NCBI GenBank assembly: GCA_963821645.1
Contig: CAWGEQ010000051.1
Span: forward strand, 17,282-81,281
Length of the DNA stretch: 64,000 nucleotides
Origin: an uncultured delta proteobacterium
GTDB lineage: Bacteria > Desulfobacterota > RBG-13-43-22
Reading direction: 5' to 3'
Positions within the stretch are counted from its first letter, which is position 1; the number at the start of each line of letters is the position of its first letter. The notes below the pieces were generated by a model. The model was not told where the DNA came from, ran no database searches, and was given only the letters and a program-made list of their open reading frames with translations. The translations under genes and the position numbers were made by a program. Positions 15,312-41,503 of this stretch are shown here, one piece after another.

Positions 15312-15824
15312 CTATGGATTTTTTTCCAAGGCCAGTAGTCTCTTCTTGAGCGGCAGCCCGCCGCCAAAACCGACCAAATCTCCTCGGGCACCGATGACCC
15401 GATGGCAGGGGACCACAACAGGGACCGGGTTGTTATGATTGGCCAGACCGACGGCCCGGCAGGCCTTGGGACGGCCGATGGTCCGGGCTATTTCACCATA
15501 GCTTCGGGTTTCTCCATAGGGGATTTTCGTCAGGGTCTCCCAGACCTGAAGTTGAAAAGGGGTCCCTTGGAGGTCCAGGGGGACGGAAAAGGCAACTTTT
15601 CTGCCGGTTAGATATTCATCCAATTGTCGATAAAGATCCTCAAAGGGGTCGGGGTTTTGGGTAAAAAAATTGGGTTGAAAATGAGTCAGGATCTTTTCAA
15701 AAAAGGATTCCACTGAATGGGTCGGGAAGGAGAGATAGCACACCCCTTTCTCCGTAGCCGCCACATAGACTCTCCCCAAGACCGGAAACTGCTTGCTGTC
15801 ATAGTATACCGTTTTGCTGTTCAT
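15312..15824 (-). CDS. ogt: Methylated-DNA--protein-cysteine methyltransferase
   Basis: IPYGETRSYGEIA...VVVPCHRVIG active-site motif. Confidence 0.9.
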   Translation of the reverse strand: MNSKTVYYDSKQFPVLGRVYVAATEKGVCYLSFPTHSVESFFEKILTHFQPNFFTQNPDPFEDLYRQLDEYLTGRKVAFSVPLDLQGTPFQLQVWETLTKIPYGETRSYGEIARTIGRPKACRAVGLANHNNPVPVVVPCHRVIGARGDLVGFGGGLPLKKRLLALEKNP

Positions 15825-18106: not shown

Positions 18107-18175
18107 GGTATAAGGTTTAAGGTAGAGGGTCATCCAAGGAGAGAGGTTTACCTTGAAACTTGAATCTTGAACCTG
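18107..18175. repeat. Heptamer-periodic imperfect hairpin (AAGGT/ACCTT type)
   Basis: GGTATAAGGTTTAAGGTAGAGGGT ... TACCTTGAAACTTGAATCTTGAACCT. It lies between the M24 peptidase gene and the oxidoreductase gene. Confidence 0.8.
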
Positions 18176-18205
18176 ACTCAGCCGTTTATCATTGGAGGTT
18201 CAACT

Positions 18206-19939
18206 ATGTCTAAACAAATTGTTATTATCGGTGCTGTCGCCCTGGGTCCCAAGGTTGCCTGCCGGGCCCGCAGGATGGACCCGACGGCACAGGTGATTTT
18301 GATCGAGCAAAGCCATCATTTCTCTTATGGTGGCTGTGGCATTCCCTTCTATATTTCAGGAGACATCAGCGACATTCAAGCCCTCATGTCCACTTCTTTT
18401 CATTTGGTTCGCGATGCTCAATTTTTTAAAGATGCTAAAGGGGTTCAGGTCCATAGTCAAACCCGGGCACTGGCTATTGACCGCCAAAAACGGCGGGTTC
18501 GAATTCAAAACATAGTCAGCGGTGCGGAAGAGGCGCTGTCCTACGACAACCTGGTACTGGCCACAGGGGCTTCTCCGGTCAGGCCGGACATCGACGGGAT
18601 AAACCTCAAAGGGGTTACCGCCATCTCCAATCCCGCTGAGGCCTTGATGATCAAAGAATCCCTCAGTCAAGGCAAGGTCAACCATTGCGTCATCATCGGT
18701 GCCGGTCCCATCGGATTGGAGATGGCCCAGGCCGTTGCCGATCTTTGGGGCGTGGAAACCACCGTTTTGGAAATTCAGGATCAAGTCTTGCCAGGACTCT
18801 TAGACCCGGATCTGGCCCGAATGCTGTTGGCTGAATTAAAGGGTCATGATGTGGACGTTCTTCTGGGAGAACGGGCCGTCAAGATTCTGGGGAATGATCA
18901 AGGGCAGGTCCAAAAGGTGATTACCGAAAACAAAGAATTGCCCGCCGACCTGGTTATCCTGGCCGTTGGGGTTAGGCCGAATACGGTTTTAGCCCAAGAG
19001 GCCGGGCTGGTTGTCGGTAATACCGGCGGAATAGCCGTTAATGAATATCTCCAGACCTCGGACCCTCGTATTTATGCCGGTGGCGATTGCATAGAGGTCT
19101 CCCATCTCATTACCGGACAACCCTGTTTTTTCCCCTCCGGCTCTCTGGCTAACAGACAGGGTCGGGTAATCGGTTCCAATGTGGCCGGGGGCCGGGAAAC
19201 CTTTCCCGGGGTTATCGGAAGTTTTGCCATCAAAGTATTCGATCTGGCGGCAGGACGGTGCGGCCTGACCACGGCTGCAGCCCGGCAAGCCGGATTTGAG
19301 GCCGAAGAGGCGTTGGTGATTCAGTCTGACCGGGCCCATTTCTACCCCGGCCAGGAATTGATGGCCCTGAAGCTCGTGGCCGATCGGAAAACGCGGAGGA
19401 TCCTGGGAATATCCGGGGTCGCCAAAAATGGAGACGCCCTGATGGCTCGCCTCACTGCCGTAGCCGGGGCCTTGCCCTATAATATGACCATAGAAGATGT
19501 GGCCAATCTGGAAATACCCTATTCTCCGCCTTTTGCAGCCGCCATGGATATCCTGAATGCCGTAGCCAACACCCTTAAAAACACCCTGGAAGGCAAGAAC
19601 CGTCCTTTACCCATAGAACAATTTCAGGAGCTCTTTTCCGGTAACAACGAAGAATCTGTCCTATTCTTAGACGTTCGGGGGCCGCGAAATGCCCAGCCTT
19701 ATGTCCAGCAATTAGGCCCTCGCTGGATCAATATTCCCCAGGAAACGCTCTCCCGTCGTCTCGATGAACTGCCCCGGGCGGAAAAACTGGTCCTGGTCTG
19801 TAACTCGGGGGTCCGCTCTTACGAGGCCCAAATTCTCTTAGATGAGGCCGGGATAAAGAATACCCTCAACCTGGCCGGGGGCGTGGCCGGGCTCAAATGG
19901 GCCGGACTAAACCCCCTTAAGGAAGAGGAAGAGAAATAA
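18206..19939 (+). CDS. FAD-dependent pyridine nucleotide-disulfide oxidoreductase (CoA-disulfide reductase/NADH oxidase-like) with a C-terminal rhodanese domain
   Basis: IVIIGAVALGPK is the FAD motif. SYGGCGIP carries the redox Cys, and VLVCNSGVRSYEA is the rhodanese active-site loop. ATG at 18206 is preceded by GGAGG. The longer TTG-started ORF begins inside a repeat. Confidence 0.85.
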   Translation: MSKQIVIIGAVALGPKVACRARRMDPTAQVILIEQSHHFSYGGCGIPFYISGDISDIQALMSTSFHLVRDAQFFKDAKGVQVHSQTRALAIDRQKRRVRIQNIVSGAEEALSYDNLVLATGASPVRPDIDGINLKGVTAISNPAEALMIKESLSQGKVNHCVIIGAGPIGLEMAQAVADLWGVETTVLEIQDQVLPGLLDPDLARMLLAELKGHDVDVLLGERAVKILGNDQGQVQKVITENKELPADLVILAVGVRPNTVLAQEAGLVVGNTGGIAVNEYLQTSDPRIYAGGDCIEVSHLITGQPCFFPSGSLANRQGRVIGSNVAGGRETFPGVIGSFAIKVFDLAAGRCGLTTAAARQAGFEAEEALVIQSDRAHFYPGQELMALKLVADRKTRRILGISGVAKNGDALMARLTAVAGALPYNMTIEDVANLEIPYSPPFAAAMDILNAVANTLKNTLEGKNRPLPIEQFQELFSGNNEESVLFLDVRGPRNAQPYVQQLGPRWINIPQETLSRRLDELPRAEKLVLVCNSGVRSYEAQILLDEAGIKNTLNLAGGVAGLKWAGLNPLKEEEEK

Positions 19940-21708
19940 TGTCATTTTCAAATTTAAAGTCTTCGAAAATTCAAGGCTTGATCCAGGTAGCCAGGGGGCA
20001 AAAAAAAGCCACGACCGTCATTAAGGACATTCACCTGGTCAATGTCTATTCCCATGAAATTCAAAAAAACCTTTCCGTAGGTTTATTCCAGGACCGGATT
20101 GCCTATATCGGCCCGGAGCCGCAAGACCTGATCGGTCCCCAAACACGGATCATTAGCGGTCTGGGGCAATATCTGTTGCCCGGATTTATAGATGGCCATA
20201 CCCATTTGGACAGTATCTTTACCTGCCGCTCCTACGCCCCCTATGCCTTAGCTACCGGCAATACCACGGCCATTACCGAAATGGCTATGATCGGCAATGT
20301 TTTCGGAAGGAAAGGCATCGATCTGTTTATGCAGGAGGCTATGGGCCTTCCCTTCAAGATTTTTTTTCTGGCCCCGGTCCTGACACCACCTTATCCCGAA
20401 CTGGAAACGAGCATGGGGATGACCCCCAAGGAATTCGCCGGCCTTCTGAAAAAACCGGAGGTCTTGGGTATCGGAGAGGCCTACTGGCCGAGGGTCTTGG
20501 GTTTGGATCCCCGGGTCATGGCCGGCTATCCCCTGGCCCATCATTTAAACAAGACACGGGAAGGGCATGCCGCCGGGGCCAGGGAGAAAAACTTGATCGC
20601 TTATGTGGCCGCCGGAGCCACCTCCTGTCATGAATCGACCAATCCCGATGAGGCCATCGAGCGGCTTCGGCTGGGAATGGCGGTCATGGTCCGTGAAGGC
20701 TTTGTGCGTTCCGAGCTTAAAGCCGTCGCGCCCATTGCCCGAATGGGTCTTGACCTGAGCCGGCTCATGCTCGTCTCCGATGTGTTTCATCCGGCCCAAC
20801 TGCTTCAAAAAAAGGGAATGAATGATTTATTGGCCCAGGCCGTGGCCTTTGGTTTTGATCCAATAACCGCTGTCCAGACCGTAACACGGAATGTGGCCGA
20901 TTATTTCGGCCTGAAGGATTTGGGCGGAATCGCCCCGGGAAAGTCGGCCGACCTGGTCCTGGTGGACAATTTAACGGATTTTAATTGTCTGAAAGTCTGG
21001 ACCAATGGTGAACTTGTCTGGGATCAGGGGAAATGGGTCAAGGATGTGCCGCCTTTTACTTATCCTCTTGAGACCAGTGAGTCTTTTTCGATTTCAAGGG
21101 TTACGCCGGATCTTTTTTGCATTCCTTCTTCGACTTCCAAGGCCTCGGTCCGAACGGTCATGGCCGTCAACCATACTATAACCAGAGAAGGGCAGGCCCA
21201 ACTCGAGAGTAAAAAAGGAGCACTGCAGACAGATCCCGATCAAGATGTTTTAAAAGTAGCCGTCTTTCAGCGGCGAGAAGCAGGCCTCCGCCCGTCCCTC
21301 GGTTTTTGCCAGGGCATAGGACTGAAAAAGGGGGCCCTGGCTACCAGCCTGAATTGGGATACCAATAACATTCTGGTCATCGGGGTTACCGATCAGGAGA
21401 TGGCCCTGGCGGTTAATCGCCTTTTGGAATTGAAAGGAGGGATAGTGGTCTGCCGGGAGGATCGTATCCTGGCCGAAATGCCCATGCCGGTTATGGGGCT
21501 GATCTCCGAAGAACCCCTGCCGGTTTTGACTCGACAGATCGAAGAAATAGACCGGGCGATCCAATCTCTGGGCTCGGCCCTGGAGAGTCCCTTCCTGGCT
21601 TTGCAGACCTTTTGTTTTACGGGTTTGCCCTTTATTCGCCTGACGGACAAAGGCCTGGCGGATATAAGGAAGAAGGAGTTGGTGGGAATGTTATTAGGGA
21701 ATGATTGA
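19939..21708 (+). CDS. ade: Adenine deaminase
   Basis: LLPGFIDGHTHLDS and an amidohydrolase fold, 589 aa. The start overlaps the upstream stop (TAATG). Confidence 0.8.
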   Translation: MSFSNLKSSKIQGLIQVARGQKKATTVIKDIHLVNVYSHEIQKNLSVGLFQDRIAYIGPEPQDLIGPQTRIISGLGQYLLPGFIDGHTHLDSIFTCRSYAPYALATGNTTAITEMAMIGNVFGRKGIDLFMQEAMGLPFKIFFLAPVLTPPYPELETSMGMTPKEFAGLLKKPEVLGIGEAYWPRVLGLDPRVMAGYPLAHHLNKTREGHAAGAREKNLIAYVAAGATSCHESTNPDEAIERLRLGMAVMVREGFVRSELKAVAPIARMGLDLSRLMLVSDVFHPAQLLQKKGMNDLLAQAVAFGFDPITAVQTVTRNVADYFGLKDLGGIAPGKSADLVLVDNLTDFNCLKVWTNGELVWDQGKWVKDVPPFTYPLETSESFSISRVTPDLFCIPSSTSKASVRTVMAVNHTITREGQAQLESKKGALQTDPDQDVLKVAVFQRREAGLRPSLGFCQGIGLKKGALATSLNWDTNNILVIGVTDQEMALAVNRLLELKGGIVVCREDRILAEMPMPVMGLISEEPLPVLTRQIEEIDRAIQSLGSALESPFLALQTFCFTGLPFIRLTDKGLADIRKKELVGMLLGND

Positions 21709-21778
21709 TGTAAAGGTGTACGGTTCAAGGTTTAGGGTTCAAGGTAAAACCCTACGCCTTGCGCCCTGCACCTTATGG
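21709..21778. repeat. Heptamer-periodic imperfect hairpin (AAGGT/ACCTT type)
   Basis: GTAAAGGTGTACGGTTCAAGGTTTAGGGTTCAAGGTA / ACCCTACGCCTTGCGCCCTGCACCTTATG. It lies between convergent genes. Confidence 0.8.
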
Positions 21779-21784
21779 GTTTTT

Positions 21785-22282
21785 TTATTCCCCCTGCAAT
21801 ATCTTCAATTCCTCCTCCCCGACTACTTCCAGGAGTACATCTCCCAGGACTTTGGCTGTCTCCCCGACAAAACGGGTGCATTCGTCCCTGCGTCCGTCGG
21901 TTCTCCTGGCCTTCACATCTTCCGGATCATACCAATTACACCTTGAAATCGTCTGACAGCTTGTGTCTCCATAGGTTTCGACCGCTAAATTTTTTAAACG
22001 GTCATAGATCACTTTTATCGTCGGGGTCAATCGGGCATCTTCCATTTCGTCTTTATTGGCACCGGCAAAGAGGCATCCAATCACCTGAACGGCCCCGCCT
22101 ATGGCCCCGCACAGATCTCCCCGGTAACACCCCCCGGTTAAACCGGCCATGGCCCGCATGGCTACATCCCTCTCTTCTTCTCCAATCATATCCAGGCCCA
22201 CGGCCAGGACGGCCTGGGCTCAATAAAAATCATTAGCAAAGAGATCCATGGCCTTTTCACGCATGTTTTCAGGGGTCACCAT
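21785..22282 (-). CDS. C_GCAxxG_C_C family redox protein, a candidate selenoprotein (Sec codon at 22220-22222)
   Basis: ATG at 22280-22282 has AAGGAGA 8 nt upstream. The reading is MVTPENMREKAMDLFANDFY-TGA-AQAVLAVG...GDLCGAIGGA...DTSCQTI...DECTRFV. The TGA sits exactly where the family has its first conserved Cys (xCAQAvL). Confidence 0.7.
22192..22217 (-). promoter_or_regulatory. Candidate SECIS-like stem-loop 3' of the in-frame UGA
   Basis: The mRNA reads UGA-GC-CCAGGCC-N12-GGCCUGG, giving a 7-bp GC-rich stem that starts 3 nt after the UGA. I have not scored it against any model. Confidence 0.35.
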
Positions 22283-22454
22283 AAAACCAGTCTCCTTATC
22301 TTAAAAAACTCACAATCCAATCCTCCAGGTCACAAACCTCCTGGCCGAACATTCCTCTCAAGCTTTCAAAAATCCGTTCATAGCGGCCAGCCGGTTTTCC
22401 TGTTCGGCGACCTGTTCGGTCAATTGTCGGGTATAATAACCATTCCGAAGTCTT

Positions 22455-22483
22455 TTGACAATCCTTCTTTTTCGCATTACAAT
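22455..22483 (+). promoter_or_regulatory. Candidate sigma70 promoter for the cytochrome genes (TTGACA-N17-TACAAT)
   Basis: -35 at 22455-22460 and -10 at 22478-22483 with an exact 17-nt spacer. It lies about 150 nt upstream of the 22633 start. Confidence 0.55.
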
Positions 22484-22632: not shown

Positions 22633-24750
22633 ATGAATCATAGACCCTTTATATTCTTTTGCGTTTCTCTTGCCCTTCTCCTGACGCTCGGGGCGGCCTA
22701 TTTTTTTGAACAAAAACTCTCCTGGAAAACCATTCAAAGAAAGACTATTTTAAGACCGGAAATAAAAGAACTGATTCTGTTTGACGGAAAGGTTCGGGAA
22801 CGGTGTTTGACCTGCCACGAGGGTATTGAAGAGATCTCCCCTTCCCACCCCATCCGGACCTTCGGGTGCACCCTGTGTCATGGGGGGAATGGACTGGCTC
22901 TGGATAAACACCTGGCCCACCAGAATCTTCTTGGGGGGAGAAACCCTTCTGATTTTCGGGTCGTCCGTCTTACCTGCGGCCGCCGCGCTCCGGATGGAAC
23001 CCTCTGTCATTCGGGACACCCGGGAATCGAAAAGGATCCTGCTGAAACGGCGCCCAAAAGCCTGATGGCCACCATGGCCGGAGTTATCGCCGGATTAAGG
23101 ATCACCTGGGGCGCACAGGAAACCCCGGACGCCATTTATGCTTCGGTGGGGGTTAAAGGGCCCAACCGGATTCTGCAAACCATTCCGGTGTTCCAGCAGG
23201 AAGGTTTGCCTAAAGATGACCGGGGAAACACAAAAGCGATTGACGATCTGGGAAATCCGATAAGCATTTCCGGTCAGTACGCCGATGATCACTGGCGTAA
23301 GTTTTGCTCCCGCTGCCATCTTTATAATCAACGTCCTTCCGGCAAAAATGCCCATGGCGGCGGATGTTCCTCCTGTCATGTTTTAAGAAACGATACCGGA
23401 CATTATGAGGGGAAAGACCAGGCCATTTCAAAGTCCCGGGAAGGATATGGGCAAATCCACCGCCTGACGACCTCTATTCCCACCAGCCAATGTCTGCGGT
23501 GTCATAATCGCAGTGGACGGATAGGTCTCACCTTCACCGGTCTTATGGAATCCGATCAATATGGGACCCCCTATCAAAATGGAAAATTGAACCCCCTTCG
23601 TCTCAGCGATGATCGATTTGTGTTGCCTTTGACCCCGGATATCCATTTTGAAAAAGGGCTGCAGTGTATCGACTGCCACACCGCCAGGGAGATTATGGGA
23701 GACGGCCGGATTTATTCCCGTATGTCTCAAGCCGTCGAGATACGCTGCCGGGATTGTCATGGAACGGAAAATGAATTTCCCAAGGTTTACCGGGTCCGCT
23801 CGGAAAAAGATCCCGCCCTATGGGCCTCGTCTTATATAAAGGTGCCTCCCTTGAAAGTCGGAGACGCACTCCTGGCCACATCCCGGGGCGGTTACCTGAT
23901 CAATGTGCGTAAAGAACCGCAGGGTTTTTTTCTCTACGGCAAGGTGGACGGAAAGCGCCATCCCCTGAAAATCATAACCAAGAATCCGGGGCCCCATATT
24001 CTGCCGGGACATTCTTCCCGGAGGATGGAATGCTTCTCCTGCCATTCCCGCTGGGCCCCCCAATGCTATGGCTGTCATGACTACCGGAAAAACGGTCAAA
24101 GGCAATGGGACTCCATGACCAAACGGGAATCACCGGGACGCTGGCAGGAAACCAGGGATTATTTTCGCTTTGAAGACCCTCCCCTGGGCATCAACCAGCG
24201 CAACAAGGTTTCTCCCTTTATGCCGGGATGCCAGGTACTGACTACTATCCTGGACCCCGAAAACCATCCCCTTCCCGGATGGGACCGGGTCTTGCATCGA
24301 AGGGCCAATTTTTCAGGGATCGTTTCCGGCCCAATTAATCCCCATTCCATCCGGAAGGAAGTCCGCTCCTGTCCCGACTGCCATAACAATCCCAAGGCCC
24401 TGGGCCTGGGAAGCGGGATTTTGTCTTTAGGCCGATCATGGAAAGACAATAAACACCTTTCCCCTTTTATTGGAGAAAAGGCCTTTCCCCATTCCTGGGA
24501 ATCCTTTGCCGCCCCGGACGGACGGCCTTTACAATCGATCTCTCACCCGGGAGCCCGGTTTTTTGATCAAAAGGATTTAAGAAAAATCCTTCAGGTAACG
24601 CCCTGTCTGCCCTGTCATGATTCTTATCGAGACCCCATATATCAGGACATAAAAAAAAGCTATGTCCTGGATCGAACCCCGAAGCACAAAGGGATAGTTG
24701 CGGATTATCTATCCCTGACAAAGGGAGGTGCGAAACCCGGGCGCCCATGA
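22633..24750 (+). CDS. Multihaem c-type cytochrome, N-terminally membrane-anchored (11 CxxCH plus one CX9CH)
   Basis: CxxCH motifs: CLTCH, CTLCH, CSRCH, CSSCH, CLRCH, CIDCH, CRDCH, CFSCH, CYGCH, CPDCH and CLPCH. CGRRAPDGTLCH aligns to a canonical site in the paralog. There is an N-terminal hydrophobic segment. Confidence 0.9.
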   Translation: MNHRPFIFFCVSLALLLTLGAAYFFEQKLSWKTIQRKTILRPEIKELILFDGKVRERCLTCHEGIEEISPSHPIRTFGCTLCHGGNGLALDKHLAHQNLLGGRNPSDFRVVRLTCGRRAPDGTLCHSGHPGIEKDPAETAPKSLMATMAGVIAGLRITWGAQETPDAIYASVGVKGPNRILQTIPVFQQEGLPKDDRGNTKAIDDLGNPISISGQYADDHWRKFCSRCHLYNQRPSGKNAHGGGCSSCHVLRNDTGHYEGKDQAISKSREGYGQIHRLTTSIPTSQCLRCHNRSGRIGLTFTGLMESDQYGTPYQNGKLNPLRLSDDRFVLPLTPDIHFEKGLQCIDCHTAREIMGDGRIYSRMSQAVEIRCRDCHGTENEFPKVYRVRSEKDPALWASSYIKVPPLKVGDALLATSRGGYLINVRKEPQGFFLYGKVDGKRHPLKIITKNPGPHILPGHSSRRMECFSCHSRWAPQCYGCHDYRKNGQRQWDSMTKRESPGRWQETRDYFRFEDPPLGINQRNKVSPFMPGCQVLTTILDPENHPLPGWDRVLHRRANFSGIVSGPINPHSIRKEVRSCPDCHNNPKALGLGSGILSLGRSWKDNKHLSPFIGEKAFPHSWESFAAPDGRPLQSISHPGARFFDQKDLRKILQVTPCLPCHDSYRDPIYQDIKKSYVLDRTPKHKGIVADYLSLTKGGAKPGRP

Positions 24751-24874: not shown

Positions 24875-26800
24875 GTGACCAAATGGTTTTTATTGCCCTG
24901 CCTGATTCTCGCCCTGTTCATTATCATGACCGATCATCCTCAATCCGCCAACCAGGGCTGTCTTTCCTGTCATCAGGGGATTGAGTCACCGGGGCCGAAC
25001 CACCGGTTTCCCTGCGAGCGATGCCATGGGGGAAATGTTCAGGCAGAGTCCCGAGAAAAAGCTCATCAAGGACTGATTGCCAATCCCTCCTCTTTGGATC
25101 AGGCACACAACCGATGTGTCCCCTGCCATCAGGAACAAATTAACAGAGTTCGACATTCCCTCATGGCCACCTCGGCCGGAGAAATCAATCAGACCCGTTA
25201 TTTGTGGGGCGCCCAGGAGGACACCGACCCCCGGTATCTGAACCGAAAAATGGACCGATATCCGGCGATACCTGTTTTTTCGGAAAGCGGTCAATTGGTT
25301 GACGACCTGCTGAGACGCCGTTGCCTTCGATGTCATCTCCATTCCACGGGGACCAAGAGATACGGAGAATGGCGGGCTGAGGGATGTGCGGCCTGCCATA
25401 TGCCCTATGCCCCCGACGGTCTTAGTCAAAGCAGGGACAAAGCCATCAGGTCGGTGGCCGATCAAATCCGGGAAGACCCCCATCGACAAAAGCGGGGCTA
25501 TCCCTTAACCCATCAATTCACCAGGGCGGTGCCGACGGAGCAATGCCTGACCTGTCACAACGGACATCGGGTCGGAATGGATTTTGTTGGCCTGGCGGAG
25601 CGGGATTATGACCAGAGCTACCGCTTTTTCTCCAAAGACGGGGAACAGGCGTCTTTGATCTACGGTTTTGACCCTCGCCGAATGACACCGGATATCCATT
25701 TTGAAAAAGGGCTGGGCTGCCTTGATTGCCATGCCTCCGGTGATGTTATGGGGGATGGAAAAGTTTATGCCCACTCAATGGAACAGGTGGCTATCCGCTG
25801 TCAGGATTGTCATGGGACACCGCAACACGAACCCCGGACAAAGATTTTGCCCCTTTCGGCGAATGGCCCTCTAAACGAAAAAGACAAAACGGTCCGGCAG
25901 GAAATCGTTCTGGATTCAAAGGGGAACCCTCTCCTGCACGTCAAAAAAGAAGCTAACGGCCTATTTCTATATTCAAAATCAAACAACAGTAAACACAGGG
26001 TCCCCTTGATATCCGCCGGAGCAACGGCCTTATCCCACCGCATCCCCGAGCATATCCGCGGGATGGAATGCCACAGTTGCCACGCCCTTTGGTCCTATCA
26101 GGATTTTGGTTTTCATCTGATCCGGGAAGATCGACCCGATTATGAAAAATGGGCCCCTTTATGGCTTCAAAACGATCCCCAGGTTCAGGACCTTCTGCGG
26201 AAGAATCTCCCTTTGAAAAAAGACCTGCGGTCCCCTCCCCTTTCCCGCGATTATTTGACGGGTACCCTTTCCCCTGGGATCTGGTATTCCGGGTGGAGTT
26301 ACCGCCGTCTGGAATCCCCTATTTTCGGCATCAACGAAAGGGGACGGACCAGTGTTTTTCGCCCCCTCCATCAGTTCGTAGTCAGCCAGGTGGATGGGAA
26401 AGGAAGGGTTGTGTTGAACAGTCAAGTTTTAAGGACCAAAGACGGAAAACCGGGTTTAGGATTTAATCCCTATGCCCCCCATACCATACGCCGGGAGACC
26501 CTCCGTTGCGAGGGATGCCACACCAATCTTAGGGCCTTGGGTTTGGGAAACCTGATGGCCCAAGAGGACGGAAAGGGGAATTTCAAGTTATCTCCTCCGC
26601 TTACCAACCCCAGAAATGGCGGCCTGAATATCCCCTTTGAGTGGGAAGCCCTCATTGATGAGAAAGGGACCCCCTTGCAAACCCAAACCCGCCCGGGAGC
26701 CCGGCCATACAATGAAAAAGAAATAAGAAGATTGATGACCAAATCAAAGGCCTATAAGGGCTTTTATACCCTTTATTATCAGGAAAAGGGGAGGTATTGA
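24875..26800 (+). CDS. Multihaem c-type cytochrome, paralog of 22633-24750 (10 CxxCH)
   Basis: CxxCH motifs: CLSCH, CERCH, CVPCH, CLRCH, CAACH, CLTCH, CLDCH, CQDCH, CHSCH and CEGCH. It shares blocks with the paralog, such as TPDIHFEKGLGCLDCH..MGDGKVY...IRCQDCHGT. Confidence 0.9.
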   Translation: MTKWFLLPCLILALFIIMTDHPQSANQGCLSCHQGIESPGPNHRFPCERCHGGNVQAESREKAHQGLIANPSSLDQAHNRCVPCHQEQINRVRHSLMATSAGEINQTRYLWGAQEDTDPRYLNRKMDRYPAIPVFSESGQLVDDLLRRRCLRCHLHSTGTKRYGEWRAEGCAACHMPYAPDGLSQSRDKAIRSVADQIREDPHRQKRGYPLTHQFTRAVPTEQCLTCHNGHRVGMDFVGLAERDYDQSYRFFSKDGEQASLIYGFDPRRMTPDIHFEKGLGCLDCHASGDVMGDGKVYAHSMEQVAIRCQDCHGTPQHEPRTKILPLSANGPLNEKDKTVRQEIVLDSKGNPLLHVKKEANGLFLYSKSNNSKHRVPLISAGATALSHRIPEHIRGMECHSCHALWSYQDFGFHLIREDRPDYEKWAPLWLQNDPQVQDLLRKNLPLKKDLRSPPLSRDYLTGTLSPGIWYSGWSYRRLESPIFGINERGRTSVFRPLHQFVVSQVDGKGRVVLNSQVLRTKDGKPGLGFNPYAPHTIRRETLRCEGCHTNLRALGLGNLMAQEDGKGNFKLSPPLTNPRNGGLNIPFEWEALIDEKGTPLQTQTRPGARPYNEKEIRRLMTKSKAYKGFYTLYYQEKGRY

Positions 26801-28114: not shown

Positions 28115-28415
28115 CTAAAATTTTAACTCATTCTTTAATTTTAACTAATTCTTTTTCCCCTCGAGAACCTCTGCCGAAAGGGTCTTTTTCCTAATTGAAC
28201 CTATTTTTTGACGATCTCCCCACTCACCAACGTTTAGGTCTATAATATTCTTCCTTTAAATTTGCTTAGACCCACCCCAAAAGCCCTTTCCCTGGTTCTG
28301 TAAAATTTCATTATATACTATTTTTGCTTTAAAATTTTTTATTGTTTAATTTCAAATCTTATGTAATTATATTCCGTCGTTCGTGACGGCTGAAAATGAT
28401 GGGCTCCGGAGGAAA

Positions 28416-30422
28416 ATGTCTTTGCTGACACAAGGAAACAGACTTTCCCGAATATTTATTTTGTTTTTAATTGTTTTATGGTCATTCGGGGCTTCAGAGA
28501 TACTGGCGCAACCTCCGTCAACGGGCTCAACGCCTTCGCAGGTCCCAATGCCTTCCGCGGATCAAACGCATTCACCGGCCTCCGCGCCGGCCCAAGGCCC
28601 TGCCATTTCCCCGGTGGTCCCCTCAACACAAAATCCTCCGGGCCAACCCCAACCGGTAACTCAGCCTCCTGCCGGACAAGTTACTGCCCCTCCGGCAGAA
28701 TCTGGTAGAGTCCAACAACCCATCAGAGGCCGCTCCCTTACTGCCGGAAGGCAGATGCTGACGAAAGGAGGCGAAATTAGTTTTAATTTTGACGACGCCG
28801 ATGTCTATTCGGTCATCCAGACTATTTTCGGGGGGGTCCTCCAATATAATTATATCATCGACCCGAAAGTGAAAGGACGGGTGAACTTTAGATCCGTCTC
28901 CCCGGTAGCCAAGGAAGACGTCCTGTCTTTGATGGAGGTTATTTTACGGTTGAATGGGATAGGGGTAGTTGAAGAAGGGGGGCTATACCGCATCATCCCA
29001 ATTGCCGATATGCCCCGAGAGCCGGCCCCGGTAAAGATCGGGCGCGACGCGGATAAAGTGACCTTACATGGCCTGGGTTTGCTTCAAGTCGTTCCCATGA
29101 AGTTTATCTCTTCCACGGAAATGGTTAAGGTATTAACTCCCTTCCTTTCCACCAACGCCGTGATAGTGGATGTGCCTAAAATAAACTATCTTATCCTGAT
29201 AGATACGGATGCCAATGTAAAACGGTTATTGCACTTGGTGGAGATATTCGATAGCGAACAGCTTAAGCAGATAAAACCCCAGGTCTTTGTCTATCCCGTT
29301 CAAAACGCCAAAGCCAAGGACCTAGCCGGTTTGTTGCAACAAATTTACCTTGGGGCAAACGCGCCGCCAAAAACATCTACCACGACCACAACGACCAAGC
29401 CAGGAACCCCTCCCGGAGCGCCGCCTTCCCCTCCTGGTCCACAAACCCAAACTCGCGTCAGTTCCGCTTCGGCAGGGGAAGCCCTGGTTTCCGATGTAAC
29501 CAAAATTTTTCCCGATGAAATCACCAATTCCCTGGTCATTCTGGCCACGCCGGAAGACTACTCCCTTATTTTACAAACCTTAAAGAAGATTGATCAGGTG
29601 CCGAGACAGGTGATGATCGAGGTACTTATTGCCGAGATAACTTTAAGCGATGAGTTAAAGTTCGGATTAGAGTGGGCCTTGAGAACCAGGGGGGGGGATC
29701 AGAGTTTTCTTAGTTTTACCGGAAGTTTTATCCCTACGGCGAGCAGCACAACATCGACAACCACTACACAGGCGCCGGGATTCTCATTCTTGGGACTTGA
29801 TAAAACCGGGCTCATAAGAGGATTTTTGCAGACCCTGGCTACCCAGGGTAAAACCAACGTCCTGGCCTCCCCCCACATCATGGCCGCCGATAACCGCGAG
29901 GCCAAGATCCAGATTGGAAGTCAGGTCCCGATCGTTACCGACGTGCTGAGCACTACGGTAACCACTCAAACCGTGCAATATAAAGATACCGGTGTGATCC
30001 TTAAAATAAAACCCACCATTAATGAAAGCGGCCTGGTCTCCATGGAAATCAGCCAGGAGGTTTCAGATTTTGTCTTCCAGGCAATCGGCACGAACACCTT
30101 CCCGGTATTTACCAAAAGAGAGGCCTCGACCTTCATGGTAGCCCAGGATGGACAGACCGTTGTCATTGGAGGACTGATCCAAAATAAGATCGGAAAGACC
30201 AGATCAGGGCTCCCCTTTCTGAGTAAGATTCCCATACTCGGCTATCTTTTCGGCTATACCGATAACACCTTCGACCGAACAGAAATTATATTATTACTCA
30301 CACCAAGAGTCGTTAGGGATCAACAAGGGGCCGAAAAAATGACCGATATGTACATCCACCGGCTGGATAGCAGTTTTGAGGGTCAGATTAAAAGCAAAAA
30401 AATAACCATCCCGAAAGAATAA
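28416..30422 (+). CDS. gspD: Type II secretion secretin GspD, with a Pro-rich N-terminal extension and Thr/Pro linkers
   Basis: It has a signal peptide (MSLLTQGNRLSRIFILFLIVLWSFGASEILAQ), N-domains and a secretin core (VLASPHIMAADNREAKIQIG...GGLI...LPFLSKIPILGYLFG). The ORF track starts at GTG 28383. Confidence 0.9.
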   Translation: MSLLTQGNRLSRIFILFLIVLWSFGASEILAQPPSTGSTPSQVPMPSADQTHSPASAPAQGPAISPVVPSTQNPPGQPQPVTQPPAGQVTAPPAESGRVQQPIRGRSLTAGRQMLTKGGEISFNFDDADVYSVIQTIFGGVLQYNYIIDPKVKGRVNFRSVSPVAKEDVLSLMEVILRLNGIGVVEEGGLYRIIPIADMPREPAPVKIGRDADKVTLHGLGLLQVVPMKFISSTEMVKVLTPFLSTNAVIVDVPKINYLILIDTDANVKRLLHLVEIFDSEQLKQIKPQVFVYPVQNAKAKDLAGLLQQIYLGANAPPKTSTTTTTTKPGTPPGAPPSPPGPQTQTRVSSASAGEALVSDVTKIFPDEITNSLVILATPEDYSLILQTLKKIDQVPRQVMIEVLIAEITLSDELKFGLEWALRTRGGDQSFLSFTGSFIPTASSTTSTTTTQAPGFSFLGLDKTGLIRGFLQTLATQGKTNVLASPHIMAADNREAKIQIGSQVPIVTDVLSTTVTTQTVQYKDTGVILKIKPTINESGLVSMEISQEVSDFVFQAIGTNTFPVFTKREASTFMVAQDGQTVVIGGLIQNKIGKTRSGLPFLSKIPILGYLFGYTDNTFDRTEIILLLTPRVVRDQQGAEKMTDMYIHRLDSSFEGQIKSKKITIPKE

Positions 30423-30495
30423 GGGGCTTCCCCCTCAACTCAGGCCGGGGTTTATTCGCCCCCGGACTAATCTATTATTTGAAGAAGTTCGCTCG

Positions 30496-31360
30496 TTATC
30501 CCAGTTCAATAGCATACTCAACTTTTAGGCCATTAGGGACTCTACCTTTGAGGCATGAGCGACTGATAACTTTGCTCCCGTCTTGGAATGACGGCCGGCA
30601 GAGGACGTCGCCGGGGATGAAATCCCGCCGGGCGCGGAAGACTGCGGGGAAGGTCCAACCCGTGTCGGGAAAACGGGCGGAGCCCCCGGCATTACCCTGG
30701 CGGGAGAAGCGCCCCCATGGGGGCAGCGGGCGGTCGGGGCTGGCCCGCGTGGGAAAGACGGGCATACCGGGTGCCTGAGGCTGGGGACCTGGTGTTGTCT
30801 GGAGGGTTTCCCTTTTCTTTGGGGATCCGGGGTTTTCCAAGGGAACTTGAATGGTTTCTTCTCCCCGGGCCATGACTACCTTGTCTTTCGTAATCTCCTT
30901 CAGCGTGAAACCCGCTCAGCATTTCTCCTTTTTTTAAGGTAGTCTGTCGATTTCCCCTTCCGGGAGTCGTGACCGGGGCCTTTTTGTCTTCCATATAGGC
31001 TATACTCAGATTAGGGGCGATCAGTGTTCCGAAAAGAACGAATTCCGGCTTGGGAAGAACGGCTTCCGCTTTTTTTTCAGGAGGGATCCTTCTTTCCGGA
31101 TGGAAGAGATTTTCATCGGCCACCACCACATAGTCCATGGGAGAAGGGTTCTGTGCCTTTGGCGGCTCGTTTTGAGTTTTCTCGACCGGTTTCTTTTTCA
31201 AGGAGGGGAGCACAATGGCCAGATTAGAATCGCGTTGGGGGAGTAGAAAACTAATGGTAAAGACCAGGGCGGCGGCGACCAAGAGACAATTCAGCAAATT
31301 AAAATTTATTAGGACCCGCCTGAACTCCAATTTATTTACCTCCATAGAGGGCGGAAACAT
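30496..31360 (-). pseudogene. GspC/PilP-like inner-membrane T2SS component with an apparent +1 frameshift near 30905-30910
   Basis: One frame gives a TM segment plus ...PEFVLFGTLI..SIAYMEDKK...TTLKKGEMLSGF. A second frame continues TLKEITKDKVVMARGEETIQVPL. The GC-rich tail is low complexity and its true frame is unclear. Confidence 0.4.
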
Positions 31361-31988
31361 CCAATCGTACCATTAAATCTCTCGGCTGTTGAAAATTTCT
31401 GACCCGGCAATCCAACTCTTTAATAACCAGATAAGGGGTCTTGGTCTCGATAAAAAAAACCATATCCCTTAAGGCCCCGGTATCCGGTGCCGTAAAATCA
31501 AAACTCACATTAATAATCTTAAATCGACTTTTCTCCGCGGATTTTTCTTTCTTGGACCTGGGGCCTTTTTGCCCTTTCGGTTCCTCCTTGGTTTGACCGG
31601 GGAGCGCGGGGGCAAGATCTTCTTCCTTCCCAACCCGTTCACTGGAGATGACGCCGCCTCTGCTGGTGATTATGCCTTTGGTCGTTTCCTGGAGAGTGGC
31701 CGCGGCCAAGGAAAAGGAGTCACCTGATATCAATTTTGCCGCATCGGTTTTTCTTTGTTCCCTGAGGGCGGTCAGTTTCTTTTGGAGATCCGGCCCTTCG
31801 GCAATGGCGGTCAGGTATTTTCCCAGGGTTTTGGCCTTTATATTCTGTTCTTCTTTGATGGCCGACAACGATTCCTGAATCCGCACATACCCGTACTGAT
31901 AAATGATCAATCCCAGGAGGATAATCAGGACAGGGATGGCTATGATTAAGATTCTATTTTTTTTCATCTTAAGGATTTTAAGATCCAT
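31332..31988 (-). CDS. gspM: GspM/PilO-like T2SS assembly protein
   Basis: A single N-terminal TM segment, a coiled region and about 218 aa, positioned after the GspL-like gene. The call rests mainly on position and architecture. Confidence 0.5.
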   Translation of the reverse strand: MDLKILKMKKNRILIIAIPVLIILLGLIIYQYGYVRIQESLSAIKEEQNIKAKTLGKYLTAIAEGPDLQKKLTALREQRKTDAAKLISGDSFSLAAATLQETTKGIITSRGGVISSERVGKEEDLAPALPGQTKEEPKGQKGPRSKKEKSAEKSRFKIINVSFDFTAPDTGALRDMVFFIETKTPYLVIKELDCRVRNFQQPRDLMVRLDVSALYGGK

Positions 31989-31990
31989 TT

Positions 31991-33508
31991 TTAAGTTGAA
32001 AGCGATCCATATTTTGCCTTGGGATCTTTAAAAGTTGGGGCGGAAAATTCCACCTTCTTAAAAAATTTAGAACCTTCCAGCTTGGGAATCAACATCGTCG
32101 CTGAAGGGGCATATCCTTCAATATTGACCTGGGCTTCAAAAATCCTCAGCCTGGTCAGCCAGGCATTCTTCGGTAACAGCAAAGTGAGCTCTTTCAGAAT
32201 ATTCAAATCCAGAGGTTTTATCTGCTTGAAGTCGTTAATAAGATTAATCTCGCCGGAAACCGCTTCGATTTCTTTTTTCAGATTATCCACTTTTTTTATT
32301 TCACCCTTTTTTAAGACAATCTGTTTTTCTAAATTATGGAGCCTTTGCGTTTCTATTTCAACCGGAGTTGTCCAATAAATCCCCACCAGGACCCCCAGGG
32401 TCAAGAGCAGCAGGAGCGTAATCACCCAGGGGGGCTTTGACTTTCGGTGAAGGCCCTTTAGCAATAAATTCAGATCCCAGGACTTAGCCCACAAAGATTC
32501 CAGGATCCCCCCGACAGCGGCATAGGGAATCTGTTTTCGTCCCTTCCCAAAGGTCCCGAACCGGAAATCCGTCTCATCCAGAAAATGGACCGTATGTCTC
32601 ATCTGGATCTTAATCGATTCCTTTAGGGTCGGGGTATTATCCTTCAAGTAAAAAATGATCCCACCCGGCAGCGCCTTTTGGTCTAAAAAGGGGAGCTGCG
32701 ATTCTATTGCCTCTTCGATCTGTTCGACCTTTGTTTTCTTAGAAGCCTCTCCGAAAAAACCGGAAAAGACCTTCAAGTCGGTAGCAGAAAAGAGTAAGGC
32801 CCCTTCATACTGATCTTTATCGATCTCCATAAAAAGGGCCTGGTTCGAATTCCGGTTGTATTGACAAAGGAGGCTTAAACCCAGGAGGTTGATGGTTATT
32901 CCTTCTACTTTGAACCCTTTTTCCCGGAGGGCCTTTAGATAAGGGTCGATCAAGTCCGCCCTGGCGGCCGCCACCTGGATAAAGACCCTGCCGGCCTCTT
33001 CCTTCAAAACCTTAAAATCATAATAGGCCTTATCCGGAGTAAAGGGGGTTATTTTATCCAATTCATAAGTCATGACCTCGGCCACATTCTCTAAAACCGT
33101 GGACGGGTAGTCCACCGTTTTGATAACCGTCCAGGCCTTGGGAATGCTCAAAGTAACGGGACATTTTTCCGCCCCCAGCTCGGCCTCGGCCAGGGCCAGC
33201 GAAGAGGTCAAGAAATTGGGCGGCGGGTAATCCCCTTCTGCCGAAGGATATTTTTTAAATCCGATGATCTTTATCCGGGAAAGGAAACGGGAACCAAGGG
33301 CTGCCTGGATTTCCCCTTTTTCAATGGACAGACACAAAGATTTCTTATAGGAAAGGCGGTCATCGGCGGGACTCAAGAAAAACCAATCGGCGATGGAAGT
33401 CCCGATTTTCTGCCAAGCCGCCCAGTCAGGGCTGAATTTCCTGAGAGTAATTTGAAGTTGTTCCATTTGAAATAAAATTTTACCATCCCTCCCGGCAGTT
33501 GTCAACAT
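31991..33508 (-). CDS. gspL: GspL-like protein (PilM-like cytoplasmic domain, TM segment, PilN-like periplasmic domain)
   Basis: The central TM segment is PPWVITLLLLLTLGVLVGIYW. The C-terminus (LNILKELTLLLPKNAWLTRLRIFEAQVNIEGYA) is PilN/GspL-like. It is positioned after gspK. Confidence 0.6.
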   Translation of the reverse strand: MLTTAGRDGKILFQMEQLQITLRKFSPDWAAWQKIGTSIADWFFLSPADDRLSYKKSLCLSIEKGEIQAALGSRFLSRIKIIGFKKYPSAEGDYPPPNFLTSSLALAEAELGAEKCPVTLSIPKAWTVIKTVDYPSTVLENVAEVMTYELDKITPFTPDKAYYDFKVLKEEAGRVFIQVAAARADLIDPYLKALREKGFKVEGITINLLGLSLLCQYNRNSNQALFMEIDKDQYEGALLFSATDLKVFSGFFGEASKKTKVEQIEEAIESQLPFLDQKALPGGIIFYLKDNTPTLKESIKIQMRHTVHFLDETDFRFGTFGKGRKQIPYAAVGGILESLWAKSWDLNLLLKGLHRKSKPPWVITLLLLLTLGVLVGIYWTTPVEIETQRLHNLEKQIVLKKGEIKKVDNLKKEIEAVSGEINLINDFKQIKPLDLNILKELTLLLPKNAWLTRLRIFEAQVNIEGYAPSATMLIPKLEGSKFFKKVEFSAPTFKDPKAKYGSLST

Positions 33509-33572
33509 TCAACCGCTAACAGCACTGAAAGGGGATCTACTACAAGCAGCAGATAATAAATTACTTTCACCA

Positions 33573-33625
33573 AAGAGACGCAGGGGGGGCGCAAAGGAAG
33601 ATATTCTCCGTGTTCTCTGAGTCTC
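33573..33625. repeat. Imperfect hairpin of related style (GAGACGC AGGGGGG GCGCAAA GGAAGAT / ATTCTCC GTGTTCT CTGAGTC)
   Basis: Read directly in the 195-nt gspK-gspL spacer. It is a weaker match to the heptamer family than the other copies. Confidence 0.45.
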
Positions 33626-33703
33626 GAACGAGTCCACCCAAGCGGACGAGAGGGCGGGACTATGGAAGGCAGCTAAAGGGAAGAAGGCATCTATGAATTT
33701 GTC

Positions 33704-34657
33704 TCATTCCGGTTTTAAAATGACCGGGGTTTTATAATATAAAATTTTATAGCTATTATTTCCCTGAAGTGTGACCGTGGCCCTGATCCCGGTACCCAGC
33801 CGGAGTTTTTTTCTATACCCAAAAGATTCGATGGTAAAGGTAGTGCTGGGGGCAATGGTCATAAATTGCATGATCTGGGCCGCATTGGTCCCCAAAAGGG
33901 GGGTCAGTTCCTGGATATTCTTAAACTCTTGTTTCTGACGAAACTCGATAATCGCCTCGGCCGCTTCCGTCGACATTCCGGGAACGGTCATCAGGACTTC
34001 TTTGGGGGCGGCATTGGCATTGACCTTATTGGTTTTCCCCTGGACTGTGAGGAAATCGATCAGGCCCTTTTTCTTCCCCGTCCCGTAGAGGAGTTCCCGG
34101 GTTATCCCCTTGACCATAATAAGCTCCTCTATGGAATCAAAATCGGCATTCTTGGCTTTATAGGGATTGGGAAGAGACAAATAGTAGTCCGATTCGGCCC
34201 CGTGAAGACGGGTTAAATCGTCCTTGTCTCGCCAGTCCTGGATGGAATCGACGATCGTTTCCAAATCATCTCCCGTAACACCCAGATTGGTGAGCAGGCT
34301 TCTTAAAAGGGTCACATCCCCGGAATTAAGGTCTATCTTTCCGGTTTCATCATAAATCCGTACGGTATAGGTTCCGTCTCCCAAGGGAATGGAATAAGGG
34401 CTGCCGTCTGTTTTCCAGAGCTCATTGCCTTCCAGCAGGGCAGTAGCCCCGAGGTATTTTTGCCGGTAGAAGAGTTCCATCACCCCCCGCTCGATCCCGG
34501 CTTCGGCCAGAAATCTATTTTCTATGCCTTCCTTAAAGTAAAGGGTGGAATGGGTCTCGGTTCCGGTCAAAAAGGTAAAGGACAAAGCGATGACCATCAG
34601 GATGGTCAAAACCCACAACACAGTAAGGAGGGCGATGCCTTTCTGGTTTTTAATCAT
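33704..34657 (-). CDS. gspK: Type II secretion minor pseudopilin GspK
   Basis: MIKNQKGIALLTVLWVLTILMVIAL at the N-terminus. The C-terminus has an HhH-like NVNANAAPKEVLMTVPGMSTEAAEAIIEFR. Confidence 0.85.
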   Translation of the reverse strand: MIKNQKGIALLTVLWVLTILMVIALSFTFLTGTETHSTLYFKEGIENRFLAEAGIERGVMELFYRQKYLGATALLEGNELWKTDGSPYSIPLGDGTYTVRIYDETGKIDLNSGDVTLLRSLLTNLGVTGDDLETIVDSIQDWRDKDDLTRLHGAESDYYLSLPNPYKAKNADFDSIEELIMVKGITRELLYGTGKKKGLIDFLTVQGKTNKVNANAAPKEVLMTVPGMSTEAAEAIIEFRQKQEFKNIQELTPLLGTNAAQIMQFMTIAPSTTFTIESFGYRKKLRLGTGIRATVTLQGNNSYKILYYKTPVILKPE

Positions 34658-34658
34658 C

Positions 34659-35390
34659 TTATTTTGACTTCTTTGTTACACCCGGAGTAGTTAATGACCA
34701 TCCTGTTTTCATAGGAATGATCAAAGAAAGGGCCTTCCCCTGGGTAGTCCAATGAAGCCGAATCTTTTCCGGTAGGGTGTTGCCTCCGGGCCACTGATCG
34801 ACCCATTCTCCTTTTTCTTCGGTCGGGTCCTTAAAATAATATTCAAAATAAAAATCGTCCAACTGGTCTAATAGCTTTATCTCCCTTTTGATCTCTTGCC
34901 CTACCCTGCTTTCCGAGGCCATAAGGGACCATTTCCCGTTGTCCCCTTCGGCGACACGATAGGAAACGACCGAATAACCGATTTCCCCTTCCCAGATGGA
35001 ATAGTTGGTTGTAACTTCCAGGGAAGTCCGATCTCCCGTAAAATTAAGTTTGGTCTCTCCATTGACTTCCCGGGTCATAGGAATGACCGATTGGATTTGA
35101 GATTCGATCACGGTCAAAGAGGCCCTGACCCTTTCCAGAGAATCTATCTTTTTCCCCCCGGCTTCAACCGACCGAAAGCCAAGTCTCAGAACGCCCATGA
35201 GGATGAGAATCATAATCCCGAGAATGGAAATGGAAATCATGAGTTCCAACAGAGTGAAACCGGCAGAAGGACCTTTGAATATCGAATATCGAACACCGAA
35301 TTTCGAATCACGAAGTAGTTTTTCCCTTAGACATTCGGTATTTGACATTTTATTTTTGCCCTTAAAATAAACCCTCGAATTTCGAATCAT
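34659..35390 (-). CDS. gspJ: Type II secretion minor pseudopilin GspJ (start uncertain; the leader runs through repeat elements)
   Basis: SAGFTLLELMISISILGIMILIL prepilin motif, followed by SLERVRASLTVIESQIQ. The first 43 codons lie in TTCGATA-type repeats. Confidence 0.7.
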   Translation of the reverse strand: MIRNSRVYFKGKNKMSNTECLREKLLRDSKFGVRYSIFKGPSAGFTLLELMISISILGIMILILMGVLRLGFRSVEAGGKKIDSLERVRASLTVIESQIQSVIPMTREVNGETKLNFTGDRTSLEVTTNYSIWEGEIGYSVVSYRVAEGDNGKWSLMASESRVGQEIKREIKLLDQLDDFYFEYYFKDPTEEKGEWVDQWPGGNTLPEKIRLHWTTQGKALSLIIPMKTGWSLTTPGVTKKSK

Positions 35391-35443
35391 GAAGTTGCCA
35401 TCCCCTTCGACATTCAGTATTCGTTATTCGATATTCAACATTC
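35277..35443. repeat. Two adjacent TTCGATA-type heptamer hairpin elements (35277-35348 and 35375-35443)
   Basis: GAATATCGAATATCGAACACCGAATTTCGAATCACGAAG...GACATTCGGTATTTGACATTT and TCGAATTTCGAATCATGAAG...TCGACATTCAGTATTCGTTATTCGATATTCAACATTC. Confidence 0.85.
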
Positions 35444-35461
35444 TCTTTTGATCTTCTTGAT

Positions 35462-35893
35462 CTATACCAGTTTTTGAGCCAACTTCTGCGTCCTCAGTGT
35501 CATCGATCTTTTCTTGAATCCCTTTGTCCAGGATACGGTCACTGCGATTTCGTACATCCTGACCTGAAGTTCTTCCGTCCTGTCCTTCAAGCTTTTTGAA
35601 ATAGAGACCTCAAATTGATAGCCATCATCCGTGACCCCCTTCCAGGTCTTTTCGGCAATTTCATCTTCGGACAAGACTTCCCGCATCTTGGATTGGGCCG
35701 CCAGGGTACCGGCCACATAATCTTCAGAAAGCGAAATGGACCTCAGGTCTATGGAAAAAAGCTGAATCACGGCAACAACGGCTATCCCCAAAAGGGACAA
35801 GGCCACCAGGACCTCCAGGAGGGTAAAACCAGCTTCAAAATAAACCCTTGAATGTCGAATTTCGAACACCGAATCTCGAATCATGAAGTTCAT
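35462..35893 (-). CDS. gspI: Type II secretion minor pseudopilin GspI
   Basis: EAGFTLLEVLVALSLLGIAVVAVIQLF prepilin motif. The protein is about 120 aa after the motif. The leader is encoded by a repeat. Confidence 0.75.
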   Translation of the reverse strand: MNFMIRDSVFEIRHSRVYFEAGFTLLEVLVALSLLGIAVVAVIQLFSIDLRSISLSEDYVAGTLAAQSKMREVLSEDEIAEKTWKGVTDDGYQFEVSISKSLKDRTEELQVRMYEIAVTVSWTKGFKKRSMTLRTQKLAQKLV

Positions 35894-36008
35894 CTTTTCC
35901 CTTCGACATTCGTTATTCGATATTCGATATTCGATATTCGCTTTTTTCCCTCCCTTTTTCGAATCATGCAGTGGTGTCTTTCCTTTCGATATTCGACATT
36001 CGACATTC
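35850..36008. repeat. Two adjacent TTCGATA-type heptamer hairpin elements (35850-35940 and 35958-36008)
   Basis: GAATGTCGAATTTCGAACACCGAATCTCGAATCATGAAG-loop-CTTCGACATTCGTTATTCGATATTCGATATTCGATATTCG. The second copy is shorter. Confidence 0.85.
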
Positions 36009-36038
36009 TATCTTCGTTCTTTCTTCCCCCTGCCCTTT

Positions 36039-36521: not shown

Positions 36522-36525
36522 GAAG
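36485..36525. repeat. TTCGATA-type arm (GAATATC x4 ..TAATCATGAAG), left partner of 36937-36980
   Basis: Read directly. It is complementary in style and sequence to the arm at 36937-36980. Confidence 0.8.
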
Positions 36526-36961: not shown

Positions 36962-36980
36962 GATTCGATATTCGACATTC
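36937..36980. repeat. TTCGATA-type arm (CTTCACTTCGATATTCGTTATTCATGATTCGATATTCGACATTC), right partner of 36485-36525
   Basis: Read directly. It contains the start codon of the four-helix-bundle ORF. Confidence 0.8.
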
Positions 36981-36998
36981 TCTTTTGATCTTTTTATT

Positions 36999-41268: not shown

Positions 41269-41503
41269 GATTTCCTCCTCGTTGAAAATGATCGAGAGCA
41301 ACTCTCAGATGGAATGAATATAAAATAGAGGAGAAAAAGAAGTCAAGGAAGGAAATCAAAAAACCGCTTCCCCCCTTGATCACTGGATTCAAAAAAAATT
41401 TTGATTGACTTATCTGCTTACCGGCTTACAATACAAATGAACCATTAAAAAAATAAGGATGCACCGGATCAAAAATTGGTTCGGGCGGACTTAAGGAGGC
41501 TTT

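Follow-up and report, generated by a model that had tools for sequence, protein, structure and literature searches.

An in-frame TGA interrupts a gene on the minus strand of the window (the whole 64-kb stretch of DNA analyzed here), and it raises the question of whether this codon ends a short reading frame or is read as selenocysteine (Sec) within a longer one. A mechanical list of open reading frames gives just the part that lies beyond the TGA (21785..22201, minus strand, 138 aa, GTG start). According to the original prediction, the same frame stays open upstream through this single TGA as far as an ATG, and this can be seen in the sequence: the TGA at 22222-22220 is the sole interruption between the ATG at 22282-22280 and the TAA that ends at 21785 (Table 1). 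The translation runs from MVTPENMREKAMDLFANDFY across the TGA into AQAVLAVG..., in agreement with the N-terminus ending in [TGA]-AQAVLAVG that had been described, and the strong AAGGAGA claimed to lie 8 nt before the ATG is present at 22297-22291. The other sequence features named in that prediction are likewise all present. The internal GTG and ATG (22201 and 22190) lack a Shine-Dalgarno sequence. On comparative sequence evidence we propose, with a probability of roughly 0.9, that this gene (22282-21785, minus strand) encodes a predicted 165-residue selenoprotein of the PF09719 family with Sec inserted at the UGA of codon 21.

Table 1. Features of the predicted selenoprotein gene and of the RNA that follows its UGA (hairpin positions count the U of UGA as nt 1).
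Feature	Position	Strand	Remarks
Full CDS of the predicted selenoprotein, C_GCAxxG_C_C family	21785..22282	minus	165 codons + TAA, predicted Sec at codon 21
Shine-Dalgarno sequence AAGGAGA	22291..22297	minus	8-nt spacer to ATG 22282-22280
In-frame TGA, predicted selenocysteine codon 21	22220..22222	minus	on first conserved Cys column of the family
Cys58 codon, CGAxxG motif	22109..22111	minus	invariant across the family
Cys109 codon, TSCxTIS, third family Cys	21956..21958	minus	from alignment
Cys135 codon, DECTRF, fourth family Cys	21878..21880	minus	invariant; from alignment
Sigma-70-like promoter match TTGTCA-17-TATTAT, 10/12	22433..22461	minus	~150 nt upstream of ATG; consensus match only
Codons 23-30, suppressed synonymous variation	22193..22216	minus	lowest 8-codon window in the gene
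Hairpin C (favored SECIS candidate)	22191..22209	minus	98.2% of cells paired; -10.0 kcal/mol in free RNA
Hairpin A (CCAGGCC-N12-GGCCUGG of the original prediction)	22192..22217	minus	nt 6-12 with 25-31; -14.7 kcal/mol in free RNA
Hairpin B (single-sequence MFE fold)	apical nt 9-12 with 18-21	minus	-13.9 kcal/mol in free RNA; 91.0% of cells paired; double changes 0

Once the stop is replaced by Cys, Pfam PF09719 (C_GCAxxG_C_C) recognizes the protein with 63.1 bits (cut-off 27; E=3e-17), as the earlier assignment to this family would have it. The match covers profile positions 1-116 of 118 and begins at residue 19, which corresponds to profile position 1; the domain therefore starts before the TGA. 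It had also been claimed that the TGA sits on the first conserved Cys of the family, and an alignment of the protein with 17 distant full-length PF09719 members (22-32% identical), taken from an exhaustive HMMER search, confirms the column. The TGA occupies the place of the nearly invariant first family Cys, in the context G[FY]xC[AS]QAV, and U21, C58, C109 and C135 fall on the four conserved Cys columns C / CGAxxG / C / C. At least 90% of the distant family members have Cys at the TGA column. The clade of the window protein has Cys without exception at two additional positions, C52 and C115, and an acidic tail, EVVGEEELKILQG, is conserved at its C-terminus. This clade is a single 50%-identity cluster, and the next full-length relatives are just 26-31% identical to P0001, one of its Cys forms. 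The window protein stays below the cut-offs of two NCBIfam models, TIGR01909 (38.9 bits vs 47.4) and NF045669, the DVU_1555 family C-GCAxxG-C-C protein (65.3 bits vs 103).

The DNA of orthologues was examined at 28 loci of species-representative genomes and at 40 metagenomic loci; 61 of these loci include the region. The named genomes are MAGs of uncultured Desulfobacterota, ‘delta proteobacterium’ or Desulfobacteraceae; the exceptions, as binned, are one Acidobacteriota, one Pseudomonadota and one unclassified bacterium. Codon 21 is TGA in 60 of the 61 loci and TGT in the other, with TAA or TAG in none, and among the genome loci alone it is TGA in 25 of 26. Judged from these sequences, the conserved TGA pattern is far beyond chance, and the related genomes hold TGA-containing orthologues of the kind that the original prediction had suggested looking for. 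When three separately fetched Cys-form loci are counted, about 94% of the orthologues examined (60/64) would use Sec. The Cys orthologues L013/L073 (TGT), L071 and L072 (both TGC) each have one continuous ORF, and full-length Cys-form proteins of 165-166 aa also occur among the best 120 database homologues (P0001, P0002 and P0007). About 115 of these 120 are 133-141 aa long and start just past the TGA position; gene callers treat UGA as a stop, so that just the last 133-141 residues are annotated.

The sequence on both sides of the TGA also behaves as coding sequence. The upstream ATG is conserved and is preceded in most orthologues by an AGGAG-like Shine-Dalgarno sequence. The 20 codons upstream of the TGA are 77% conserved as protein and have an ordinary synonymous diversity (0.47, vs 0.52 in the gene body), and they are therefore translated in this frame. 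TGA is the ordinary stop of 18 of the 33 Pfam-supported genes in the window, where it is the commonest stop, so the genetic code is standard. Some copies of the gene are damaged. One orthologue (L027:6001-6493) has the TGA and the hairpin described below, with a frameshift ~100 codons in. In a single lineage (L025:5880-6320, L062:2880-3410, L064 and L065) unrelated sequence that begins with MCQAIFGW stands in place of the first 29 codons, in which the Sec codon and the hairpin's 5' half would lie. Three of these four copies have also had the C-terminus after GRRD replaced, which gives them the look of remnants, and they are probably gene remnants. A database fragment of the family, P0131, has Trp at the Sec column; this is most likely an annotation artifact of a gene call made with a table in which TGA is Trp (translation table 4 or 25), rather than a variant.

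Synonymous variation drops sharply just beyond the TGA. Across codons 23-30 the synonymous diversity is 0.19, against 0.52 for the rest of the gene (Mann-Whitney p=7e-6). The drop speaks for an RNA element in this stretch and for a non-protein constraint on nt +7 to +30. GGCC occurs three times here, so that three mutually exclusive hairpins are possible, termed A, B and C, whose pairing we scored as cells across 47 distinct sequences. Hairpin A is the inverted repeat CCAGGCC-N12-GGCCUGG of the original prediction, and it does exist 3' of the UGA as claimed, at 22217-22192. Hairpin C is nested within the same stretch. It consists of a lower stem (14-16:30-32), an unpaired U17 opposite U29, a 4-bp upper stem (18-21:25-28) and an apical loop G22 U23 G24 (22201-22199) that begins 18 nt after the UGA.

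In free RNA, C is the least stable of the three hairpins. With nt 1-12 removed, the MFE fold is hairpin C, at -11.5 kcal/mol, and it makes up 88% of the ensemble. All of these energies are ordinary for so G+C-rich a composition (z = -1.5 to -1.7). The comparative data slightly favor C: the variable synonymous sites (nt 6, 9, 12, 24 and 33) are all unpaired in C, whereas nt 6, 9 and 12 are paired in A, and the observed score of C was reached by 0/500 column shuffles. For hairpin A, 95.4% of cells are paired, with 15 broken and a double change in 1 cell. Hairpin B was ruled out as a conserved element by its 91% of cells paired and its lack of covariation. The evidence for hairpin C as a SECIS lies mostly in conservation; its covariation amounts to one pair, 19-27 (G-C 37, G-U 5, A-U 5), with the A-U state in related sequences and possibly a single event. 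The GUG-loop hairpin also agrees with the published bacterial SECIS (bSECIS) consensus, which calls for a loop of 3-9 nt with a G in the first two loop positions followed by G or U, a UGA-to-loop spacing of 16-37 nt and an MFE of -7.5 kcal/mol or lower (PMC13188914); applied by hand, these rules accept its GUG loop, its 18 nt spacing and its -10.0 to -11.5 kcal/mol. The inverted repeat first put forward as the SECIS is thus present in the sequence and probably not the functional element, since the nested hairpin C fits the comparative data and the consensus better and is probably the SECIS candidate. Each of the two, A and C, may have its own moment of forming. A search of the window against Rfam at gathering thresholds found no hit, and one at E<=10 across 21700-22400 found nothing relevant, with only chance CRISPR-DR and TLS hits.

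Hairpin C resembles the fdhF element of Escherichia coli in some respects and differs from it in others. The minimal SECIS of Escherichia coli comprises nt 15-31, with a bulged U17 and loop nucleotides G23 and U24 (PMC8659212). Like that fdhF element, hairpin C is a small hairpin that starts 10-11 nt after the UGA, has an unpaired U at nt 17 and opens its apical loop with G-U (G22 U23 here, G23 U24 in E. coli). Its loop, in contrast, is the 3-nt GUG, and its U17 and U29 form a mismatch in place of a bulge on one side. Nor does it have an evident counterpart of the extended lower stem that belongs to the 40-nt E. coli element. The Cys forms serve as a small control supplied by nature. Among them, the hairpin is intact in L071 (TGC) and in L073/L013 (TGT), which suggests that these are recent single-base changes from Sec to Cys. 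L072, the most divergent Cys form, is the sole sequence with CTC at nt 28-30, which breaks the lower stem.

Genes for Sec insertion and further selenoproteins were sought around the locus. ARAGORN found no tRNA at all, and so no tRNA-Sec, whether in the 64-kb window or in the sequence flanking 49 related loci. A Pfam scan detected no SelA, SelB or SelD among the 40 window ORFs; the ORF at 58247-59293, considered as a SelD candidate on account of an upstream TGA, is a truncated AMP-binding ligase by Pfam. Neither a scan of the window for in-frame TGA codons nor a scan of the window and related loci for known Sec motifs revealed a second selenoprotein gene, and both returned only noise. Two families with Sec forms elsewhere (PMC13188914) are present in the window as Cys forms, namely a CoADR-like flavoprotein with a rhodanese domain (18167-19939, plus strand; GGCGIP) and an Ogt methyltransferase (15312-15824, minus strand; PCHRV). 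An indirect hint that Sec machinery may be present comes from the hosts of the clade: they belong to the Thermodesulfobacteriota, which are among the most selenoprotein-rich bacteria (PMC13188914).

The neighborhoods of 63 loci hold no universal gene partner, and the context is not conserved. Close relatives share the neighborhood of the window (CoADR-like gene, M24 peptidase, radical SAM, Ogt, rpsB and tsf), and others differ entirely. The commonest neighbor, found directly upstream on the same strand at 14 of the 63 loci (for example L069:4595-5749), is a radical SAM gene of ~380-430 aa. This gene is absent from the window, and it may be a clade-specific functional partner. In the window itself, two large multihaem c-type cytochrome genes (22633-24750 and 24875-26800, plus strand; 705 and 641 aa) diverge from the selenoprotein gene. 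The intergenic region between cytochrome and selenoprotein genes has back-to-back promoter-like sites (22433-22483). The search that gave the sigma-70-like match at 22433-22461 found 2 sites against 0.9 expected, which is not significant. A cluster resembling a type II secretion system or type IV pilus (secretin GspD, PilM/PilN-like, T2SS K, F and E ATPase) lies at 28383-39709.

Several other genes in the window are broken, and the original prediction had set the TGA apart from them. This distinction holds, in that those genes look frameshifted or truncated, as seen from partial coverage of their Pfam profiles, and do not look like substitutions. The match of the amidase gene (40063-41301, minus strand) ends at profile position 285 of 445, that of the DctM gene (54842-55750, minus strand) begins at profile position 122, and that of the AMP-binding ligase gene (58247-59293, minus strand) begins at profile position 170. 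In the close relative L069, rpsB is split in two. Together, the damaged window genes and the split rpsB suggest a technical and not a biological cause, namely indel errors in long-read assemblies.

This background of damage, together with split genes in related assemblies, is what would speak for the TGA at codon 21 being a sequencing or assembly error, or else a recent inactivating mutation that has left a pseudogene. Such an origin is effectively refuted by this TGA, which recurs at codon 21 in 60 independent assemblies that represent many samples and species. Moreover, the flanks are under purifying selection, and the other disruptions have the look of frameshifts and truncations, not of substitutions. 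Read-through of the UGA in some way that does not involve Sec, whether by a reassigned code, by near-cognate insertion of Trp or Cys or by a suppressor tRNA, could draw on the Trp in P0131 and on the Sec machinery not being seen in the window. We consider it extremely improbable. The simplest account of P0131 is a gene call under table 4 or 25, TGA serves as an ordinary stop in more window genes than any other codon, and the homologues have Cys at this column, which is the signature of Sec; a conserved SECIS-like hairpin also lies at the right distance.

The remaining alternative takes the UGA at face value, as a real stop that would leave a 20-codon upstream ORF and a separate, shorter PF09719 protein beginning at GTG 22201 or ATG 22190. 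The bulk of the best 120 homologues (~115, at 133-141 aa) are annotated in this way, and the lineage of L025, L062, L064 and L065 does without the first 29 codons. However, the shortened protein would lack the first conserved Cys of its family, and a true stop sits uneasily with 60 loci that have TGA and never TAA or TAG, and with Cys forms that are a single continuous ORF. The internal GTG and ATG have no Shine-Dalgarno sequence, while the upstream ATG has a conserved one, and the internal GTG is itself the apical loop of the conserved hairpin. As for the lineage with the deleted N-terminus, three of its four copies lost the C-terminus too and are remnant-like. Taken together, the comparative results (TGA in 60 of 61 loci, upstream codons that are translated, a standard code) exclude that the TGA is a sequencing error, that the gene is a pseudogene or that the code is reassigned, and they make a leader ORF followed by a shorter protein very unlikely. 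The Sec reading, by contrast, draws on the conservation of TGA alone among the stop codons, the conserved flanks, the Cys orthologues, the synonymous suppression after the UGA and the use of TGA as a stop elsewhere, and in this central point the original prediction stands.

When a UGA occupies the ribosomal A site, the first ~12 nt downstream lie within the mRNA channel, as ribosome footprints indicate. For the predicted selenoprotein we therefore envisage that, with nt 1-12 held in the ribosome, the RNA from nt 14 onward would fold into 3 bp, an unpaired U17, 4 bp and the GUG loop. By analogy with the minimal E. coli SECIS, whose geometry it shares, hairpin C might then recruit SelB-GTP-Sec-tRNA(Sec), and the UGA at codon 21 would be decoded as selenocysteine. 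The finished protein could use Sec21 as a reactive nucleophile, which would enter a selenenylsulfide bond to a conserved Cys.

The Cys orthologue P0001 is all-helical in its AlphaFold model (pLDDT 84, pTM 0.83). Residue 21 opens the helix 21-33 in this model, and Cys58 lies immediately before the helix 59-73. The reactive Cys or Sec of thiol oxidoreductases is often found at a helix N-terminus. No solved relative was found in the PDB by sequence (best E-value 0.98), and a Foldseek search of the PDB with the AlphaFold model gave no fold relative (best E-value 2.1). With no structural relative by sequence or by fold, structure gives no functional lead. We infer, at low confidence, that a selenol/thiol redox center with Sec21 as the nucleophile is the most likely role; alternatively, Sec21 could serve as a ligand of a metal or cluster.

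Selenoproteins of the PF09719 family are not new. One was reported in 2007 as a ‘Putative redox protein’ of the Olavius algarvensis delta-1 symbiont (Zhang & Gladyshev, PMC1976440), and the family is among the selenoprotein families in a later review (PMC9312934). A 2026 review separates ‘form 1’, the Olavius symbiont protein, from ‘form 2’ (WP_012158890.1), and the published representatives of the two forms are MGD8741185.1 and WP_012158890.1 (PMC13188914). The NCBIfam name of TIGR01909 likewise reads ‘C-GCAxxG-C-C family (seleno)protein’. The gene described here thus adds to a selenoprotein family that was known before, as a member that is new or has at least gone unannotated, and since PF09719 is already listed as such, the find is less novel than the original prediction implied.

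Compared by description, the published Sec proteins and the window protein share the Pfam family, Sec in place of a conserved Cys and a deltaproteobacterial (Thermodesulfobacteriota) host, and in both cases a SECIS-like hairpin directly follows the UGA. The window clade differs in being a separate 50%-identity cluster in our data that lies below the TIGR01909 and NF045669 cut-offs. With the Cys-containing proteins that make up most of PF09719, the window protein shares the four-Cys pattern and an all-helical predicted fold. Those proteins differ in having Cys, not Sec, at the first position, and C52, C115 and the acidic tail are peculiar to the window clade. A bolder proposal would make the PF09719 clade of these hosts a distinct, Sec-dominant subfamily restricted to Desulfobacterota-like bacteria. 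It would perhaps correspond to neither published ‘form’, it would be missed by selenoprotein-aware models and so be truncated in essentially every entry, and its three GGCC repeats, with their mutually exclusive hairpins around a minimal SECIS of the E. coli type, could tune Sec insertion. We regard this combination as possible but rather unlikely.

Near-universal Sec at the first Cys would, on these alignments, mark the reactive center of PF09719, and the compact, well-conserved hairpin, as a clean example from nature, could help to refine models of the bacterial SECIS, though neither point alters existing knowledge of selenoproteins. The more immediate consequence concerns the sequence records of the family. 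About 115 of the best 120 entries end up without the residue that is most likely catalytic. A dedicated model of the clade would mend hundreds of records and would add one selenoprotein for these Desulfobacterota.
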